Positions 8,869 to 16,147 of a DNA stretch of 64,000 nt are shown piece after piece; the first letter of the stretch is position 1, and each line of letters begins with the position of its first letter. This DNA comes from Holosporales bacterium (GTDB taxonomy: Bacteria; Pseudomonadota; Alphaproteobacteria; Holosporales; Holosporaceae): positions 28,442 through 92,441 of the forward strand of contig CANHKV010000002.1 in assembly GCA_947461445.1 (NCBI GenBank), read 5' to 3'. The notes under the pieces are model-generated. The model worked only from the letters and a program-made list of their open reading frames with translations. It did no database searches and had not been told where the DNA came from. The translations under genes and the position numbers were made by a program.

Positions 8869-9047
8869 TCTTTTAGCAAACATCTTTGCGATATAAATCA
8901 TAATAAAAATTACATTATACGATGTTTATCGCATAGTAAAAACCATGCCCTATTTTAATATGTTTTATTTTTATTGACAAATCGTGAATTTTGAATCATA
9001 TTAAAAGGATCATTTTGAAAATTATAAAAGGCTGGCATACTGTGCTT

Positions 9048-9734
9048 ATGATCTCTGGACCAGAAGGTTCCCTAGAAGCGTCCTATCACTGTTCACCCAT
9101 GGACCCCAGGGCACCTATGGTGATTCTAATGGCCCCCCATCCCGAACAAGAAGGCACCATGGATCATGCTGTAATGCAGGCTCTGTTTCGTGTTTTTGCC
9201 CGTCTGGACTTTAATATTTTACGCTTTAATTATCGTGGTTCTGGGAAATCTCAGGGCACCTTTACCAACGGAGAAGGCGAAGTATCTGATGCGGCTGCCT
9301 GTTTGGATTGGATGCAAAACAAAAACCCAAATCCAGCCCAATGTTGGGTTGCTGGGTTTTCTTTTGGGGCCTATATTGCCTTGCAATTGCTGATGCGTCG
9401 TCCGGAATGCCACAGCTTTGTGGCCATCAGTCCCCTGGCCAATATGTATGACTTTAACTTTTTGGCGCCATGTCCTGCCCCTGGATTGGTGGTTCATGGG
9501 GATATGGATGAGGTCACACCAAAAGAGTCGGTTATTCGACTGACCCACCAGCTATCCATGCAAAAAAGAGGCCATAAAATTGCCCTTCATCTGATTCCTG
9601 GGGCGGATCATGCCTTTGCAAGCCATCTGAAGAGTGTGGAAACCACAATCCAAGAATACGTTCTAAGCAAGCTGTCCCCACCGGTGCGTCACGCAGAAAG
9701 AGGGTGGGCTCAAAAGGCTGCTTTGGTCGGCTAA
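9048..9734 (+). CDS. Alpha/beta-fold hydrolase (COG2945-like)
   Basis: Nucleophile elbow GFSFGA, later HGDMDEV and GADHAF motifs, about 228 aa. The ORF is open back to a TTG at 8991; the ATG at 9048 is preferred. Confidence 0.7.
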   Translation: MISGPEGSLEASYHCSPMDPRAPMVILMAPHPEQEGTMDHAVMQALFRVFARLDFNILRFNYRGSGKSQGTFTNGEGEVSDAAACLDWMQNKNPNPAQCWVAGFSFGAYIALQLLMRRPECHSFVAISPLANMYDFNFLAPCPAPGLVVHGDMDEVTPKESVIRLTHQLSMQKRGHKIALHLIPGADHAFASHLKSVETTIQEYVLSKLSPPVRHAERGWAQKAALVG

Positions 9735-9887
9735 GGAATTGTGTCTTAACATCCGCCTGATTCATCACTGCAAGAATACCTATGATGGGTATGAATGGGG
9801 GTATCTTGAGCAGAGCCCCCATCCATTATTTCATGGGTTTTTTTTATTCATTATGGCGTACTTTGTTGTATTTTTTTAATTTTTCTC

Positions 9888-10271
9888 TTAAAAGTTCAAT
9901 AAAAACCATTTCCATTCCATTTTTTTTAATTCTTCTCTTGATTCGCGTTGAATAGTCCATGTCGATAATTTATCTTTAAGTTTTCCTTTTACTGCTCTTG
10001 CTTTCTGTTCTTCTGGGGTGATATTAGAGTTCTCCTCTTTCATAATATGGTCTGTGATTGGATCAAAATTATTTAATTTATTTTGTTCTCTTTGGATGGT
10101 GGCATTAATAACAGGATTTTCGGGGGCTGTGCTTTGTAAACTCAGTCCCCCATATTATGGGTCAACTCATCCTTCAAAAGCTTGTCAATCTTTTTTCCAT
10201 CGAGAATTAATTCCATTTTTTGTTTGGTTTTTTTTAGGCAAGATTTCTTCCGGGGTGGCAGTATAGATCAT
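9888..10271 (-). pseudogene. Degraded 128-codon ORF (K/E/L-rich) interrupted between a T8 and a C5 tract
   Basis: The frame starting at ATG 10271 is open to the stop at 9888-9890 except for three stops clustered in about 45 nt. That stretch is open in a second frame bounded by homopolymers at 10228-10235 and 10147-10151. Confidence 0.35.
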
Positions 10272-10289
10272 AAGATCCACTTCTTCACA

Positions 10290-11060
10290 TCAGGCGCCTG
10301 TATTGTTACCGGAATGGTGTTCTAATAACTTTTTTAGAAGTAATTGTGTGTAAAGTATTTTACAATATTCGAAGCTTGTATCAAATACGCGGTCAACCAT
10401 TCTTTGCTTTACATCTAAAGTCAAGTTTATTGGAACGGATTCTTTCATAACCGCTGTTTTTGCTGATTCACACAATTCGCTATACAGCGCTCTTGCATAA
10501 TTAAACTTGCGAGCAATGCCAAAATCATTTGGTATCTTACGGCTAACTGTGAATAAAGAGGACAAATTTTTAACCATTTGGTTGGTAAATGTCACCCCAG
10601 GTTCCATTCCATGGATTTCTTTGTTATTCAGAATTTGAGAGAACTTATGTACAAACAGATCGCCTGCACATAAAGAAAGTAATTTCCATCTTCCGATTTC
10701 GCTATGATTTTCAAACATATATTTTTCAAGAGAGCGGACCTCTCCATTTTTTTCAATAGATGATGGACCACGTATCTTCAAACTAGGATCTATTGTTGCC
10801 TTAATTATTTGCTCTATCATTTGTGGAGTAATACCGCTGTCAATTAAAATATAGTCAAGTCCATCGCTCATTGCTCTCTCAATTTTACCCAAGTTTTTTA
10901 TCTTGTGTTTTTGACACAATTCAAAAAATTTACGTTCTTTGCTTTTTGAAGATTGAACATGTTTTACTGCGACTTCATCCTTTGTTTCTTCTACACATTG
11001 AACATGGTTTGCTCCTGTTAATAACGCCATAAGGGCCATAGTTTTCATCCAATGTTTCAT
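10290..11060 (-). CDS. Hypothetical secreted protein (256 aa from the MKHW start), AT-rich island
   Basis: ATG at 11060 is preceded by SD AAAGGTG. Signal-peptide-like MKHWMKTMALMALLTGANHVQC. The ORF track starts 9 codons upstream. No family recognised. Confidence 0.55.
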   Translation of the reverse strand: MKHWMKTMALMALLTGANHVQCVEETKDEVAVKHVQSSKSKERKFFELCQKHKIKNLGKIERAMSDGLDYILIDSGITPQMIEQIIKATIDPSLKIRGPSSIEKNGEVRSLEKYMFENHSEIGRWKLLSLCAGDLFVHKFSQILNNKEIHGMEPGVTFTNQMVKNLSSLFTVSRKIPNDFGIARKFNYARALYSELCESAKTAVMKESVPINLTLDVKQRMVDRVFDTSFEYCKILYTQLLLKKLLEHHSGNNTGA

Positions 11061-11162
11061 ACATACACCTTTTTGTTGATTGTCCAATTACTTTAGGCCA
11101 AAAATTGTTTTTTTAAAATATTTTTAGCCACTTTTTTAAATTGGGATTTATGCCATCCAATG
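11021..11162. repeat. Copy A of a 142-bp repeat (dnaE 3' end fragment, intergenic region, SD and signal-peptide coding)
   Basis: 3 mismatches in 142 nt against 12616-12757 by manual alignment. Confidence 0.9.
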
Positions 11163-11174
11163 GTGTCGTCAAAG

Positions 11175-11216
11175 GACACCTCGGAAACCACGGGTTGAGG
11201 TGTCTGTGATTTTTTA
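11175..11216. terminator. Terminator-like hairpin (8-bp GC-containing stem) flanked by an A-tract and a T-tract
   Basis: GACACCTC-N14-GAGGTGTC followed by TGTGATTTTTT on the + strand. It lies just downstream of the minus-strand 341-aa ORF, so the functional direction is uncertain. Confidence 0.35.
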
Positions 11217-11261
11217 ACAATATGACATTTAATCGTTGTGGCGCCGTAGTAATGCCTTAGT

Positions 11262-12287
11262 TCATTCTTTTTTCGGCGGAATCATAGCCTTAGTTAACTC
11301 TTCTTTCGGCGGAATTGTTAGCGCCATATCTATACCATAACCACTAGGTTTACCAGTTGATTTTTCTTTCAACGGAATACTTACTGGGTGTTTTAAAAAA
11401 ACACCATCATAGTAGCTAAACAGTGCTATTCTCAGCATTCGTTCAACGAAATAGAGCTCAGTCATACTTAGCTTATTCATACTTGGCTCAGTCATACTTA
11501 CTGAAGTTTTTGACATTAAATGTGTAAGATCTGGGACATTTTTATCTTCTTTAACGATGCTAGATACATCATAAAGATCAGGATAGTCTATATAAAAATT
11601 TTTATAATCCAGAATTGGCACATTTATAATTATTATAACACGAATTGACTCATTTGCACCTGTTTCAATACTTTTGGCATTGGATTGAGTAAATTGAATA
11701 GTGTATTTTATAGACTCTTCTTGAGATTCACTAGATGGTACATAAGATCTTATTGATACGGTTTTAATTTTTTTGAAACTATCCATACAACGTACAAAAT
11801 TAAGTAAAGTGCGCACTCTTTCAGTTGAAAAATGTTTTGGTGATTTGTAAAAAAACAAATGTTTATTAAAATCATCTAATGTTTTAAACACTCCATTTGG
11901 GCAATCATTAATATTATGTAAAAATTCTAACAACACACCTAGTATTAATTCTTTATAAATTTCCTTAATATCTTTAGAATCTATGTTTGTAAATTCTTTT
12001 CCGGATTTATTTTCGCATTCTTTTTTTAAATCATTAACATCTATTAACATTATGCGGGACATTGGTTCCATACTCTTTTTATCGAACATACCCAACTTTT
12101 TTTCATAACCATTATTATCAATTTTGTCATTCAGAGATTTTTGTAATTCTTCTAGATACTCTTCCCGTGTTAAGGTAAGGGTGTTTTCACCATAAAGGAA
12201 TGAACGCTTTTCAAAACAATTGCCACCATATTGGTAACAATCAGGATGATCTCCCCTAGCATACCCTTCCTCCGTATGCTTCTTCAA
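11262..12287 (-). CDS. Hypothetical protein (341 aa), AT-rich island, no signal peptide
   Basis: Long ORF in very AT-rich DNA. The only in-frame start is TTG and no SD is seen, so it may be 5'-damaged. No family recognised. Confidence 0.45.
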   Translation of the reverse strand: MKKHTEEGYARGDHPDCYQYGGNCFEKRSFLYGENTLTLTREEYLEELQKSLNDKIDNNGYEKKLGMFDKKSMEPMSRIMLIDVNDLKKECENKSGKEFTNIDSKDIKEIYKELILGVLLEFLHNINDCPNGVFKTLDDFNKHLFFYKSPKHFSTERVRTLLNFVRCMDSFKKIKTVSIRSYVPSSESQEESIKYTIQFTQSNAKSIETGANESIRVIIIINVPILDYKNFYIDYPDLYDVSSIVKEDKNVPDLTHLMSKTSVSMTEPSMNKLSMTELYFVERMLRIALFSYYDGVFLKHPVSIPLKEKSTGKPSGYGIDMALTIPPKEELTKAMIPPKKE

Positions 12288-12412
12288 AGGAAAAAAATTA
12301 ACATGTTTGCTATCAGTATTTTTTTACGCTCAATAAAACAATTGGAAAATAATTCTTTAAAAATTTGATGAATTTGAAAACTAGCATATTCTTTAATTTT
12401 ACATTCTTCATT

Positions 12413-12655
12413 TTAACGTTCTTTATTTTTATTTACCAAGTTTTTTTCATTGCTGTTAACATCTTGTATATCCGATTTTTCAAGCTCCACACCTTTCATA
12501 GGATCGTCGCTATTTTCATCAAAAGTATATTCATCAAAAGTATATTTTTTATTATATTCAGATTCCGCAGTATCGATGGTGCTATCTACGCAATAAATAG
12601 AACCCGCATGGCATGATAACGCCATAAGGGCCATAGTTTTCATCCAATGTTTCAT
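12413..12655 (-). CDS. Small hypothetical secreted acidic protein (80 aa from the MKHW start)
   Basis: Same SD and MKHWMKTMALMAL signal-peptide start as the gene at 10290-11060. The mature part is unrelated and contains the YTFDE-YTFDE duplication. Confidence 0.45.
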   Translation of the reverse strand: MKHWMKTMALMALSCHAGSIYCVDSTIDTAESEYNKKYTFDEYTFDENSDDPMKGVELEKSDIQDVNSNEKNLVNKNKER

Positions 12656-12757
12656 GCATACACCTTTTTGTTGATTGTCCAATTACTTTAAGCCAAAAAT
12701 TGTTTTTTTAAAATATTTTTAACCACTTTTTTAAATTGGGATTTATGCCATCCAATG
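12616..12757. repeat. Copy B of the 142-bp repeat; includes the genuine dnaE stop and last codons
   Basis: Aligned by eye to 11021-11162. The repeat ends 15 nt into the dnaE ORF (12743-12757). Confidence 0.9.
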
Positions 12758-15700
12758 TTGTAAGTGAGAGCGCAACGATGGGGTTAAACGATATCTGTTG
12801 GGCAATAGGATGCGTAGGGCAAGGATTTTTTCCTCTGCTGAAATGGTCACACACACGGTTACGCGGGTATTCCCGGACGGTGCTTTGCTTAACAACCCAC
12901 ACACAAAGGCTACTTGGTCTTCTGGCAGATGTAACACCACAGAATTTTCTCGAGTATACACATCAATAGGGTATAATTCTGTGGCAGATAAACGAATGCT
13001 TTCCGCCGCCACGCGCCCTGAAATTTTTAAAGCAATGGCCGCACCAGGAACCAACATGGATCTGTGTTGGGTCAATAGTTCAGAAAACAGCGTAACCTCG
13101 TAACTGCCTGTGGGATCTGATAAGTGCAAAAAAGCATATTTTTTTCCGGTTTTACTGATTTTTTCAGTCATTTCCAAAACCATGCCCATCATGGGAAAGG
13201 TTTTTTTCTCTGTGACCATTTCCTGAGTAATGCATTCGGATAACACAAAATTTTCTGATGGATAGCCTTCTAGGGGGTGTGCCGTAAGGTAAAATCCAAT
13301 GGCTTGACGCTCGTAATCCAAGGCTTCGTACATGGACCAGGGCATGACGTCTTTTAATACACACGTGTTTTCTATGGGAAACAACAGACTGGTTGTTTGC
13401 ACCGGTACGCCTCCACGCAACAGGTTTTCCACGCTGGCCCACAATGCCGCCCTTTGTCCAGGGTGCACAGAATCAAACGCCCCCGCAGCAATTAAACTTT
13501 CCAGATTCTTTTTATTTAGCCCCAAAGGGCCAATACGCCGTATACAGTCAGAAACCGATTGAAAAGGTCCGTTTTGTATGCGATTTTCCACCATTTTTTC
13601 CATCACCACTGTGCCGACACCCTTTAATGCTGACAGGCCATAACGAATACAATCCCCCTGTTCTATGGAAAACAGAGCATTGGATGCATTAATATCTGGG
13701 GGGAAAATGTCTATTCCCATGCGCCGTGATTCGCGTACAAACAAACGTAATTTATCCACATTGTGGGCATCATGAATCATCAACGCTGTCATAAATTCCA
13801 CGGCATAGTTGGCTTTTAAATAGGCCGTTTGATAGGAAATCAAAGCATAGGGTGTGGCATGGGCCTTTGGAAAGGCATAGCTGGCAAATTTGGCAATTTG
13901 ATCAAATAATGTCGTGGCACGCGTGGGATCACCGCCATAGGTTTTGATCACGCCATCGACAAAGATTTTTCGCTGCGCATCCATTTCTGATTTGATTTTT
14001 TTACCCATGGCCCGACGCAATAAATCGGCTCCGCCTAGGCTGTAACCCGCCAACGTTCGAGCAATTTGCAATACTTGCTCTTGATAAACCATAACACCAA
14101 AGGTTTCTTTCAAAATGTCTTCCAGACAGGCGTACGGGTATGAGGCGACCTCTTTACCGTGACGACAGGCCAAATAACGGGGAATATCATCCATGGGACC
14201 AGGACGATACAAGGCCACCAATGCGATAATTTCATTAAAATGTTCGGGTTGTAATTGCCTTAACACATCGCTCATGCCCGCACTTTCTAACTGGAACAGC
14301 CCAACCGTTTCTGCTCGAGCCAACAATTGAAAGGTGGCAGGATCATCCAAGGGAATGGCCGTCAGCACCACATGAACGTGACGTTTCCGCAACAATTCCA
14401 CCGTTGTTTGCAATACGGTCAAGGTTTTTAGACCTAAAAAATCGAATTTAACCAACCCTGCGCTTTCCACATATTTCATAGAAAATTCTGTGGCGGGCAG
14501 AGCAGAGCCCTCGTCTTGATACAGCGGAACCACGTCGGTCAACGGATTCTTGCTGATGATCACACCCGCCGCATGGGTAGAGGCGTGACGATACAGTCCC
14601 TCTAGTTTCAAGCCGATGTCCAGTAATTTTTTAACCTGATCATCCTCTTCAGCCATGGCTTCCAATTGGGGTTCCAGCTTCAGGGCCTCTTTTAAACTGA
14701 CGGGGGCAGCCGGATTATGGGGGATTAGTTTACAAATCTTATCCACTTGACCATAGGACATCTGCAACACACGCCCCACATCGCGCAACACGGCCCGAGA
14801 CTGTAGGGTACCAAACGTAATGATATGGGCCACATGGGCGGCACCATATTTATCGCGGACATAGGCAATCACCTCGTCTCTGCGTTCTTGACAGAAATCC
14901 ACATCAAAGTCGGGCATGCTGACACGATCTGGATTCAAAAAACGTTCAAAAAATAATTCGAATCGAATGGGGTCAACGTCGGTAATAGACAGGGACCACG
15001 CCACCAAAGAGCTCGCCCCTGACCCACGTCCCGGCCCCACGGGAATGCCGTTATTTTTCGCCCATTGAATGAAATCTGAAACGATTAAAAAGTATCCCGG
15101 AAAGCCCATGCGCACAATCATATCGCATTCGTAATCCAGACGTTTTTGGTAATCATCACGCAATGTGTCGTGACTGGATTGGGGATGCAGTGGGTACACT
15201 TCGTTTTGCAGCCGTTGATTCAGACCAGATTGGGCTTGATGGGATAATTCTTTGGGTTCGGGTTGCCCACAGGGAAAGGAGGGCAAGGTGGGGGGTTGGG
15301 CACGCAACAAAAAAGAACAGCGTTGCACCAGATGTTGGGTATTGGTTATGGCCTCTGGCACATCGGCAAAGAGTTGCACCATATCGGCTGGACTGCGGAA
15401 AAATCGATAGGGACTGACCCGTGGCCGGTCTTCTTCGTAAACGTATCGCCCCAACGCCACACAGCGCAGCGCGTCATGGGCCTCGTGATCTTCTGGATTT
15501 AAAAACATAACCTGATTGGTGGCAATCAAGGGTAGACCCAAATCAAAGGCCCATTGTATCAGGCGCTCTTCGCTGTTTAGACGTTTATCCGATAATTCAG
15601 GGTCAATGCATCCCTCTTCGGGCAGAGCCTCTTCACGCTGTAATTCCACATACAGGCGTTGATCAAACTGTTGCACCAGATCGTGTAAAATGTCTTTGGC

Positions 15701-16147
15701 CGTATCCAAACGATCGCGCTCTATGTGTTGATTAATGGCACCTTCTATACCGCCCGTCAGCACCAAGATATGTTCACCATACTGTTTTAATTGATCCCAT
15801 GTGACAGAGCCACGCAATGCAGAGGGTTGATTTACCGTGGATGCACTGACCAGGCGGCATAAATTTTGATACCCCTGGTGATTTTGTGCAAAAACAACCA
15901 AAGGATAGGGGGTCATACTGGATGAATGGATCCAGGACAGTTGCGTCCCTATGATGGGGTGAATGCCCTTTTTTTGACAAGCCAGTGAAAATTCTAAGGC
16001 CCCAAATAAATGCCCGGTATCCGCAATACCCAGGGCCATCATGCCGTATTCTAATGCTTTTTCAATCAATGTTTTGGTGGGTATGGCGCCTTCTAGCAAG
16101 GAATAAGGGGTGTGATTGCGCAAGGCATAATAAGGGCAGGTCATCAT
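12743..16147 (-). CDS. dnaE: DNA polymerase III alpha subunit
   Basis: 1134 aa. N-terminal PHP domain, conserved polymerase core (GPGRGSGASSLVAWSL, PDFDVDF) and a C-terminal OB-fold region. Confidence 0.95.
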   Translation of the reverse strand: MMTCPYYALRNHTPYSLLEGAIPTKTLIEKALEYGMMALGIADTGHLFGALEFSLACQKKGIHPIIGTQLSWIHSSSMTPYPLVVFAQNHQGYQNLCRLVSASTVNQPSALRGSVTWDQLKQYGEHILVLTGGIEGAINQHIERDRLDTAKDILHDLVQQFDQRLYVELQREEALPEEGCIDPELSDKRLNSEERLIQWAFDLGLPLIATNQVMFLNPEDHEAHDALRCVALGRYVYEEDRPRVSPYRFFRSPADMVQLFADVPEAITNTQHLVQRCSFLLRAQPPTLPSFPCGQPEPKELSHQAQSGLNQRLQNEVYPLHPQSSHDTLRDDYQKRLDYECDMIVRMGFPGYFLIVSDFIQWAKNNGIPVGPGRGSGASSLVAWSLSITDVDPIRFELFFERFLNPDRVSMPDFDVDFCQERRDEVIAYVRDKYGAAHVAHIITFGTLQSRAVLRDVGRVLQMSYGQVDKICKLIPHNPAAPVSLKEALKLEPQLEAMAEEDDQVKKLLDIGLKLEGLYRHASTHAAGVIISKNPLTDVVPLYQDEGSALPATEFSMKYVESAGLVKFDFLGLKTLTVLQTTVELLRKRHVHVVLTAIPLDDPATFQLLARAETVGLFQLESAGMSDVLRQLQPEHFNEIIALVALYRPGPMDDIPRYLACRHGKEVASYPYACLEDILKETFGVMVYQEQVLQIARTLAGYSLGGADLLRRAMGKKIKSEMDAQRKIFVDGVIKTYGGDPTRATTLFDQIAKFASYAFPKAHATPYALISYQTAYLKANYAVEFMTALMIHDAHNVDKLRLFVRESRRMGIDIFPPDINASNALFSIEQGDCIRYGLSALKGVGTVVMEKMVENRIQNGPFQSVSDCIRRIGPLGLNKKNLESLIAAGAFDSVHPGQRAALWASVENLLRGGVPVQTTSLLFPIENTCVLKDVMPWSMYEALDYERQAIGFYLTAHPLEGYPSENFVLSECITQEMVTEKKTFPMMGMVLEMTEKISKTGKKYAFLHLSDPTGSYEVTLFSELLTQHRSMLVPGAAIALKISGRVAAESIRLSATELYPIDVYTRENSVVLHLPEDQVAFVCGLLSKAPSGNTRVTVCVTISAEEKILALRILLPNRYRLTPSLRSHLQHWMA

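Follow-up and report, generated by a model that had tools for sequence, protein, structure and literature searches.

In Helicobacter pylori, RecA-dependent copying of a 5′ segment keeps the fronts of the paralogous outer-membrane protein genes babA and babB, sabA and sabB, and homA and homB near-identical, the remainder of each gene staying divergent. The erp or "upstream homology box" family of Borrelia, the closest precedent for the present locus, is said to derive from one promoter, leader, and localization sequence and many diverse bodies (PMC10016077), and the effectors of phytoplasmas share a signal motif, that of the sequence-variable mosaic (SVM) proteins, within variable mosaics (PMC8026896). 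Here we describe a locus in a Holosporales bacterium that recalls all three. The DNA analyzed (hereafter "the window") is a stretch of 64,000 nucleotides (nt) from an 835-kb genome (assembly GCA_947461445.1, contig CANHKV010000002.1, positions 28,442 to 92,441), and the element in question is a cassette of 146 bp that occurs twice beside dnaE, heading two genes, p80 and p256, whose products are probably exported. As in the erp genes of Borrelia burgdorferi (ospE/ospF/elp), where shared upstream DNA and a leader head unrelated, recombining bodies, the same front end stands before different bodies in the window, and likewise in its closest relative. We consider it fairly probable that the cassette acts as a recombination handle in a fast-changing island next to dnaE; the exact route that we propose is a reconstruction.

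A repeat search of the window returned a direct repeat of 146 nt on the minus strand (11021 to 11166 and 12616 to 12761), with 97% identity between the copies and a spacing of 1,595. The original prediction had described a near-identical repeat of 142 bp, and base-by-base comparison found its three mismatches (12722/11127, 12691/11096, and 12656/11061) and a fourth (12758/11163) in the edge by which the repeat extends beyond the 142 bp; the longest exact run common to both copies is 40 nt. Copy B (12616 to 12761) holds the genuine end of dnaE (12743 to 12757), a spacer of 87 nt, the Shine-Dalgarno (SD) sequence AAAGGTG (12661 to 12667), and the start of p80, with its ATG at 12653 to 12655. Copy A (11021 to 11166) has the same spacer, the same SD sequence (11066 to 11072), and the start of p256 (ATG at 11058 to 11060), all of it preceded by a stranded dnaE tail (11148 to 11162). 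In each copy the SD sequence lies seven bases ahead of the ATG, and the first 13 codons of p80 (12617 to 12655) and p256 (11022 to 11060), which resemble those of a signal peptide, both read MKHWMKTMALMAL. All of these components had been anticipated, with one correction: the dnaE end in each copy, CAT TGG ATG GCA TAA, is made up of four codons (HWMA) and a stop, not of about five codons and a stop. Copy A carries two T-to-C changes that no other copy of the cassette shows.

A promoter region had also been attributed to the cassette, but no sigma-70 promoter consensus was found inside it; the promoter in that description is an assumption, and transcription from the cassette is something that we infer. 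The only Rfam match to the cassette, to SAM_alpha (E = 0.88), was judged to be due to chance.

The closest relative is known from a metagenome contig (L019), the conserved genes of which are 91 to 94% identical to those of the window. On L019, dnaE is followed in turn by p259, a second copy of the cassette, an 80-amino-acid (aa) open reading frame (ORF), a 147-aa ORF, a 228-aa ORF, and the gene for an alpha/beta-hydrolase; p259, a 259-aa gene, is the orthologue of p256. L019 446 to 1539 aligns with window positions 11166 to 10077, so that dnaE, the cassette, and p259 are contiguous and the 1,595-bp unit is missing from the dnaE-p259 junction. The comparison with dnaE-downstream DNA in relatives thus bore out the direction that had been read from the stranded dnaE tail: the orthologue of p256 lies directly after dnaE, without the 1.6-kb block, and the tail marks p256 as a former neighbor of dnaE. 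The gene table of L019 recurs on a 102-kb contig from another sample, and in a third data set a Logan contig equivalent to L019 568 to 1649 begins in the repeated 30-mer of the first cassette and ends just before the second.

The second cassette of L019 has no dnaE tail (35 to 41% identity there) and heads a p80-type gene downstream of p259, with 39 of 40 nt identical in the 40 nt past the cassette. Because a cassette-headed p80-type gene is also found in L019, this pair of genes predates the divergence of the two lineages, and the suggestion that the cassette had captured new cargo in one recent step does not hold. After about codon 27, the p80 bodies of the window and L019 are unrelated at the DNA level, and p341, an orphan ORF that lies between the two cassettes of the window, has no counterpart in L019. 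What is new in the window is the gene order, the body of p80 after about codon 27, and p341.

In L019 (540 to 570) the cassette ahead of p259 has lost its SD sequence (AAAGGTG to AAAAATT), and a TGG-to-TAG change shuts the frame of the first ATG (MKH*), so that p259 must start at its second ATG (MKTMALMAL). Public gene calls for the cassette-headed genes of the window start later still, at MALMAL.

The near-identity of the two window copies is the product of recent re-copying or homogenization within the genome. In a four-way alignment of the window and L019 copies, 13 spacer sites paired the copies by genome and 1 by orthology, and after codon 13 every informative site followed orthology, which argues that the 146 bp were re-copied in the window lineage well after the split. 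The spacer core is 96.9% identical between copies A and B, 63 to 76% identical between window and L019 copies, and 73% identical between the two L019 copies, with codons 1 to 13 being 97 to 100% identical in all four. The dnaE tail and 5′ spacer of copy A match those of copy B at 36 of 37 positions, and those of the window are 82 to 85% identical to those of L019. The stranded tail carries the derived bases of the window (GCA TAA ATCCC, versus GTA TAA ATTCC in L019), so it was copied after the window and L019 had separated.

Alternatively, a plain duplication might have been followed by purifying selection that held the fronts alike while the bodies drifted apart, and both the conservation of codons 1 to 13 across the four copies and the about neutral rate at which the bodies evolve would fit such a history. 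However, a spacer that is 97% identical within the genome and only 63 to 76% identical between genomes is not being held constant by selection, and the stranded, nonfunctional dnaE tail is equally conserved. This explanation is contradicted for the spacer, could apply only to the 39 coding bases, and is in our view highly improbable. Identity running on through both gene bodies, which would have made the locus a simple gene duplication, was not found either, there being nothing alike beyond the 146 bp; a recent tandem duplication of the whole 1,595-bp unit was rejected on the same grounds.

The original prediction had the identity stopping abruptly inside the signal peptide, ahead of unrelated mature regions. 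High identity does end sharply after codon 13, but some likeness persists: in the next 54 nt, p256 and p80 are identical in register at 24 positions (14.5 ± 3.3 expected by chance), a value reached at none of 240 other in-frame offsets in a test that was picked after the data had been viewed. The two bodies are unrelated by tblastn, apart from a weak likeness that extends to about codon 30. In view of this residual identity above chance, p256 and p80 appear to be old paralogues in their first 30 or so codons.

If they are old tandem paralogues, concerted evolution might account for the locus without any rearrangement in the window lineage. The order dnaE, p80, p341, p256 would then be ancestral, L019 would be the rearranged genome, and a gene conversion tract of ~146 bp would have copied dnaE-proximal sequence over the front of p256. 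The locus has features of segmental concerted evolution, in that the copies are more alike within the genome than orthologues are between genomes (the 13:1 ratio of spacer sites), the tract has a sharp edge, and recA is present. The residual likeness to about codon 30 is also consistent with it, as are the ease with which a single deletion between the 146-bp direct repeats would create the dnaE-p259 junction seen in L019 and the faintly p80-like, lipoprotein-like start of the gene adjacent to dnaE in another member of the genus (G004). However, gene conversion requires homologous sequence on either side of the tract, and there is none upstream of copy A, where a hairpin region would have to pair with dnaE coding sequence. 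Furthermore, the second cassette of L019 lacks a dnaE tail and the block that it heads is unlike p341, so that this block is not a re-inserted excision product; although its length (1,623 bp) is close to that of the window unit (1,595 bp), only the cassette and 40 nt are common to the two, and we rejected an excised circle as its source. We regard concerted evolution as the sole process as rather unlikely.

We favor instead a history in which the shared front end served as a substrate for recombination, a role that had been proposed for the cassette and that its position at recombination junctions supports. In the ancestor, the p256 gene would have lain directly after dnaE, and the p256-type and p80-type paralogues would have kept a common front end comprising the ribosome site and the first 13 to 14 signal-peptide codons. 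After the split from L019, one rearrangement in the window lineage would have put a p80-type gene and p341 between dnaE and p256, through RecA-type recombination, with the common front end supplying the homology, and an illegitimate join at 11166/11167. This junction lies a short way downstream of a hairpin (GACACCTC-N14-GAGGTGTC; 11175 to 11204, minus strand) situated between the p341 stop codon and the stranded dnaE tail. In one possible route, a dnaE-cassette-p80-p341 allele would have entered a dnaE-cassette-p256 chromosome by integration or unequal exchange; in the other, the whole island would have been duplicated and a cassette-by-cassette deletion would have followed. Either route would give dnaE-cassette-p80-p341-[dnaE tail]-cassette-p256, with a duplication of the 146 bp that run from the last four codons of dnaE to codon 13, and the two copies would since have gained only 2 to 3 differences.

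An intact recA gene is present (C2:15352-16140; E = 1.5e-138), and the Phage_integrase (PF00589) and Resolvase (PF00239) families had zero matches in the whole genome, whereas both families were matched in 12 to 14 of the control genomes. Ordinary homologous recombination is therefore favored. With PF00589 unmatched, no recombinase of the XerC/XerD type was detected in this genome, which is rated 98% complete.

The same results bear on whether the 146 bp might be the site for a dedicated recombinase in a mobile cassette system, of the integron-like, shufflon, or Mycoplasma vsp/Vis-like kind. Such a system would account for the sharp end of identity and for the different order of the cassette-headed genes in the two genomes. 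However, besides the lack of any tyrosine or serine recombinase family match, a genome-wide count found only two copies of the cassette in the 835 kb, both direct, and the cassette has neither inverted repeats nor RNA structure (fold z score, 0.74). None of the family's other 10 genomes has it, and two metagenome scans, one with an exact 28-mer and one with a p256 alignment, revealed no further carriers among records from which those of very near genomes may have been held back. A dedicated recombination system is thus exceedingly improbable, and, given two copies and no tyrosine or serine recombinase family found in the genome, there is no sign that the portable module of the original prediction is an autonomous mobile unit.

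A further possibility is that two strains, one with dnaE-cassette-p80-p341 and the other with dnaE-cassette-p256, were joined into one metagenome contig during assembly. The known relatives are metagenome-assembled genomes (MAGs) from lakes, and the alternative arrangement does occur in nature, in L019. On the other hand, three differences and the absence of any exact run longer than 40 nt mean that ordinary k-mer sizes resolve the copies; at 11166/11167, where the hairpin region meets the dnaE tail, the sequence is unique, without a repeat edge at which an assembler could have made up a join; and duplicated cassettes are found in independent assemblies of the relative. We consider a chimera very unlikely.

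Several points weigh against recombination at the cassette as the full explanation. No single simple event would turn the L019 order into that of the window: in this comparison of two genomes, at least three events separate the islands. The p80 bodies differ, p341 has no L019 counterpart, and a window-specific segment of 242 nt (9835 to 10076, minus strand) stands in place of 1,623 nt in L019, which hold the second cassette and the 80-aa, 147-aa, and 228/248-aa ORFs. The spacer core differs by 24 to 37% between the genomes, more than expected from a neutral, synonymous divergence (dS) of 0.07 to 0.2, which hints at further exchanges that have gone unseen. The cassette has no promoter consensus; the signal peptide is predicted by simple rules and has a short hydrophobic core; and this genome, like all of the relatives found, was probably assembled from a metagenome. 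Within the 242-nt segment is a 51-codon ORF (MKEENSNITPEEQKARAV...; 9888 to 10043, minus strand) that has no L019 counterpart.

The recombination reading is set in a broader pattern, that of the interval between dnaE (12743 to 16147, minus strand) and the convergent alpha/beta-hydrolase gene (8991 to 9734, plus strand), which form the left and the conserved right border, respectively, of a variable island of ~3 kb (about 9800 to 12750) with 26 to 36% GC, compared with 43 to 50% in its flanks. The genus consists of lake MAGs, one of them labelled Candidatus Finniella inopinata. The two border genes are syntenic in all relatives, and the intervening content differs in every genome of the genus. 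Two intervals, of about 230 bp (G003) and about 500 bp (G001), are "empty" and of normal GC; that of G002 (1.4 kb) has a different 340-aa orphan ORF; that of G004 (2 kb) has a lipoprotein-like 308-aa ORF; and the L019 interval, with p259, the second cassette, and the 80-aa, 147-aa, and 228-aa ORFs, measures 2.7 kb, compared with 3.07 kb for p80, p341, and p256 in the window. None of the last three was found in G001 to G004, the intervals of which were searched with all three ORFs and the whole genomes with p341 only.

Across the genus, homology is lost within the final codons of dnaE. When window positions 12743 to 12765 were compared with the dnaE ends of five contigs (L015, L016, L017, L019, and L023), the residues following SLRSHLQ varied by genome (HWMA, HWMV, QWMTLMP, KWMVRS, KFLISEA, and TFLAPLL). 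Because the C terminus is genome specific, the left edge of the island falls within the very end of the coding sequence of an essential gene. Taken together with the comparison with L019, these results make it fairly probable that the dnaE-hydrolase interval of this Finniella-like symbiont is a lineage-specific, AT-rich hot spot of fast-evolving orphan genes, the products of which are probably exported. In G004, the most distant member of the genus, the ORF beside dnaE (L017 430 to 1356) starts MKKSKKLGMFRIFSLAVMALTLSCEKSIAVES; this lipoprotein-like start has a faint similarity, not significant in tblastn, to that of p80 (MALMALSCHAGSIYCVDS).

The p80 product (80 aa; 12413 to 12655, minus strand) starts MKHWMKTMALMALSC. 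Cys15 follows A-L-S, a possible lipobox, so that its start could act as a signal of the lipoprotein type; the genome encodes LspA, and p256 has no lipobox. Codons 1 to 27 of p80 are common to the 80-aa ORF of L019, and the unrelated remainder is of low complexity (YTFDE-YTFDE). By simple rules, the N termini of p80 and p256 are signal-peptide-like and their products probably exported: a net charge of +2 is followed by a run of 17 residues without a charged residue, within which the hydrophobic core is short (7 to 8 residues; mean Kyte-Doolittle value, 2.1 to 2.3).

The p256 product (256 aa; 10290 to 11060, minus strand) has as its sole homologue the product of the 259-aa gene after dnaE in L019; p80, too, has one homologue, its L019 counterpart. 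The p256 and p259 proteins share 66% aa identity, and both frames are open at a dS of 0.20 and a ratio of nonsynonymous to synonymous divergence (dN/dS) of 1.04, compared with ratios of 0.00 to 0.23 for neighboring genes. A dN/dS of about 1 with the frames kept open makes the products candidate host-interaction proteins, and p256-type products look like fast-evolving, still-coding proteins that face the host or lie at the surface.

The 341-codon p341 ORF (11262 to 12287, minus strand; 31% GC) has no cassette. It has no ATG or SD start; TTG opens the frame at 12287. A strong SD sequence, GGAGG, at 12273 and an ATG at 12262 (minus strand) head a 30-codon ORF with a hydrophobic N terminus, MLGEIILIVTNMVAIVLKSV (within 12170 to 12290, minus strand), in a frame other than that of p341; a formerly longer gene may have undergone a one-base frameshift around this start. 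At the 3′ end of p341 (11254 to 11315), a 29-nt direct repeat with 33-nt spacing constitutes an in-frame microduplication that carries the stop codon (…IPPKEELTKA MIPPKKE*). No homologue of p341 turned up in a word-indexed search (5.8 billion), when 1.84 billion representatives were scanned exhaustively with HMMER, or in a six-frame search of the 11 genomes of the family. The frames of p341 and p256 are far longer than any in 2,000 shuffles. Searches of Pfam, NCBIfam, and PHROGs gave nothing credible for the island products, the single PHROG match to p341 (18.5 bits, E = 0.0032) included. A weak PADLOC assignment of p341 to PD-T4-9_A (20.9 bits, E = 7.7e-5) was distrusted for an AT-rich orphan ORF, and a PDB sequence search returned only designed repeat proteins, which were judged chance matches. 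AlphaFold models of p256 and p341 were of low confidence (mean predicted local distance difference test scores, 36 and 38).

The genome has a second array of the same design, so that a shared front end is a recurring habit of this genome. Among 121 repeat pairs in the genome, the 40 longest listed are all direct and most are local. At C5:100-2150, abutting the contig end, four small ORFs in tandem (start positions 162, 770, about 1393, and 1813) have in common an 80-nt core with 91 to 100% identity, made up of the SD sequence GGAGAAAAA and the signal peptide M(T/K)KLYSI(F/L)FLA(L/F)IGA..., ahead of mature parts that bear no relation to one another. In two of the four, the common sequence takes in 155 nt upstream and precisely the 23-codon signal peptide. 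Such front ends might even be platforms for gene birth in a shrinking symbiont genome, where AT-rich DNA that came to lie in frame behind the leader would at once be translated and exported. We consider this quite improbable, but if it were true, both p80 bodies and all four genes on C5 would represent exported proteins, newly born or captured, that selection tests at the host interface, and p341, without a cassette of its own, would be island DNA that was carried along.

None of the described systems corresponds fully to this one. The erp genes are allelic loci on multicopy cp32 prophages with a conserved operator/promoter, whereas here there are two chromosomal copies beside dnaE, without a promoter consensus or a credible PHROG match; the erp leader is that of a lipoprotein, and here p80, with its lipobox candidate, is a putative one and p256 has no lipobox; and the organism is a reduced, protist-associated alphaproteobacterium. 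The phytoplasma SVM proteins (PF12113; SAP11, SAP54, and other effectors) offer a parallel in a reduced-genome intracellular bacterium, with unrelated secreted proteins behind one signal motif, but neither p256 nor p80 had a Pfam match to SVM_signal (PF12113) at an E value of ≤1, and the phytoplasma signal lies in mobile regions of the potential mobile unit (PMU) type, whereas no mobile-element genes were seen here. As in H. pylori, copies from one genome resemble each other more than they do those of another genome, but the H. pylori bodies are clearly homologous, whereas the bodies of p256 and p80 have no relation past about codon 30, and genes have moved as well. A 1,595-bp unit between 146-bp direct repeats, and an uninterrupted dnaE-p256 junction in the relative, also recall Campbell-type integration or unequal crossing-over, except that there is no episome or integrase and one end is an illegitimate join.

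The principle is thus already known from Borrelia, phytoplasmas, and Helicobacter, and what this locus adds is a clean comparative case and no new mechanism. It is a dated, directional example of how an intracellular symbiont with an 835-kb genome still reshuffles and renews a few orphan proteins that we infer to be exported. RecA and a short 5′ segment common to both genes would suffice for such reshuffling, which takes place at a hot spot that cuts into the last codons of dnaE.

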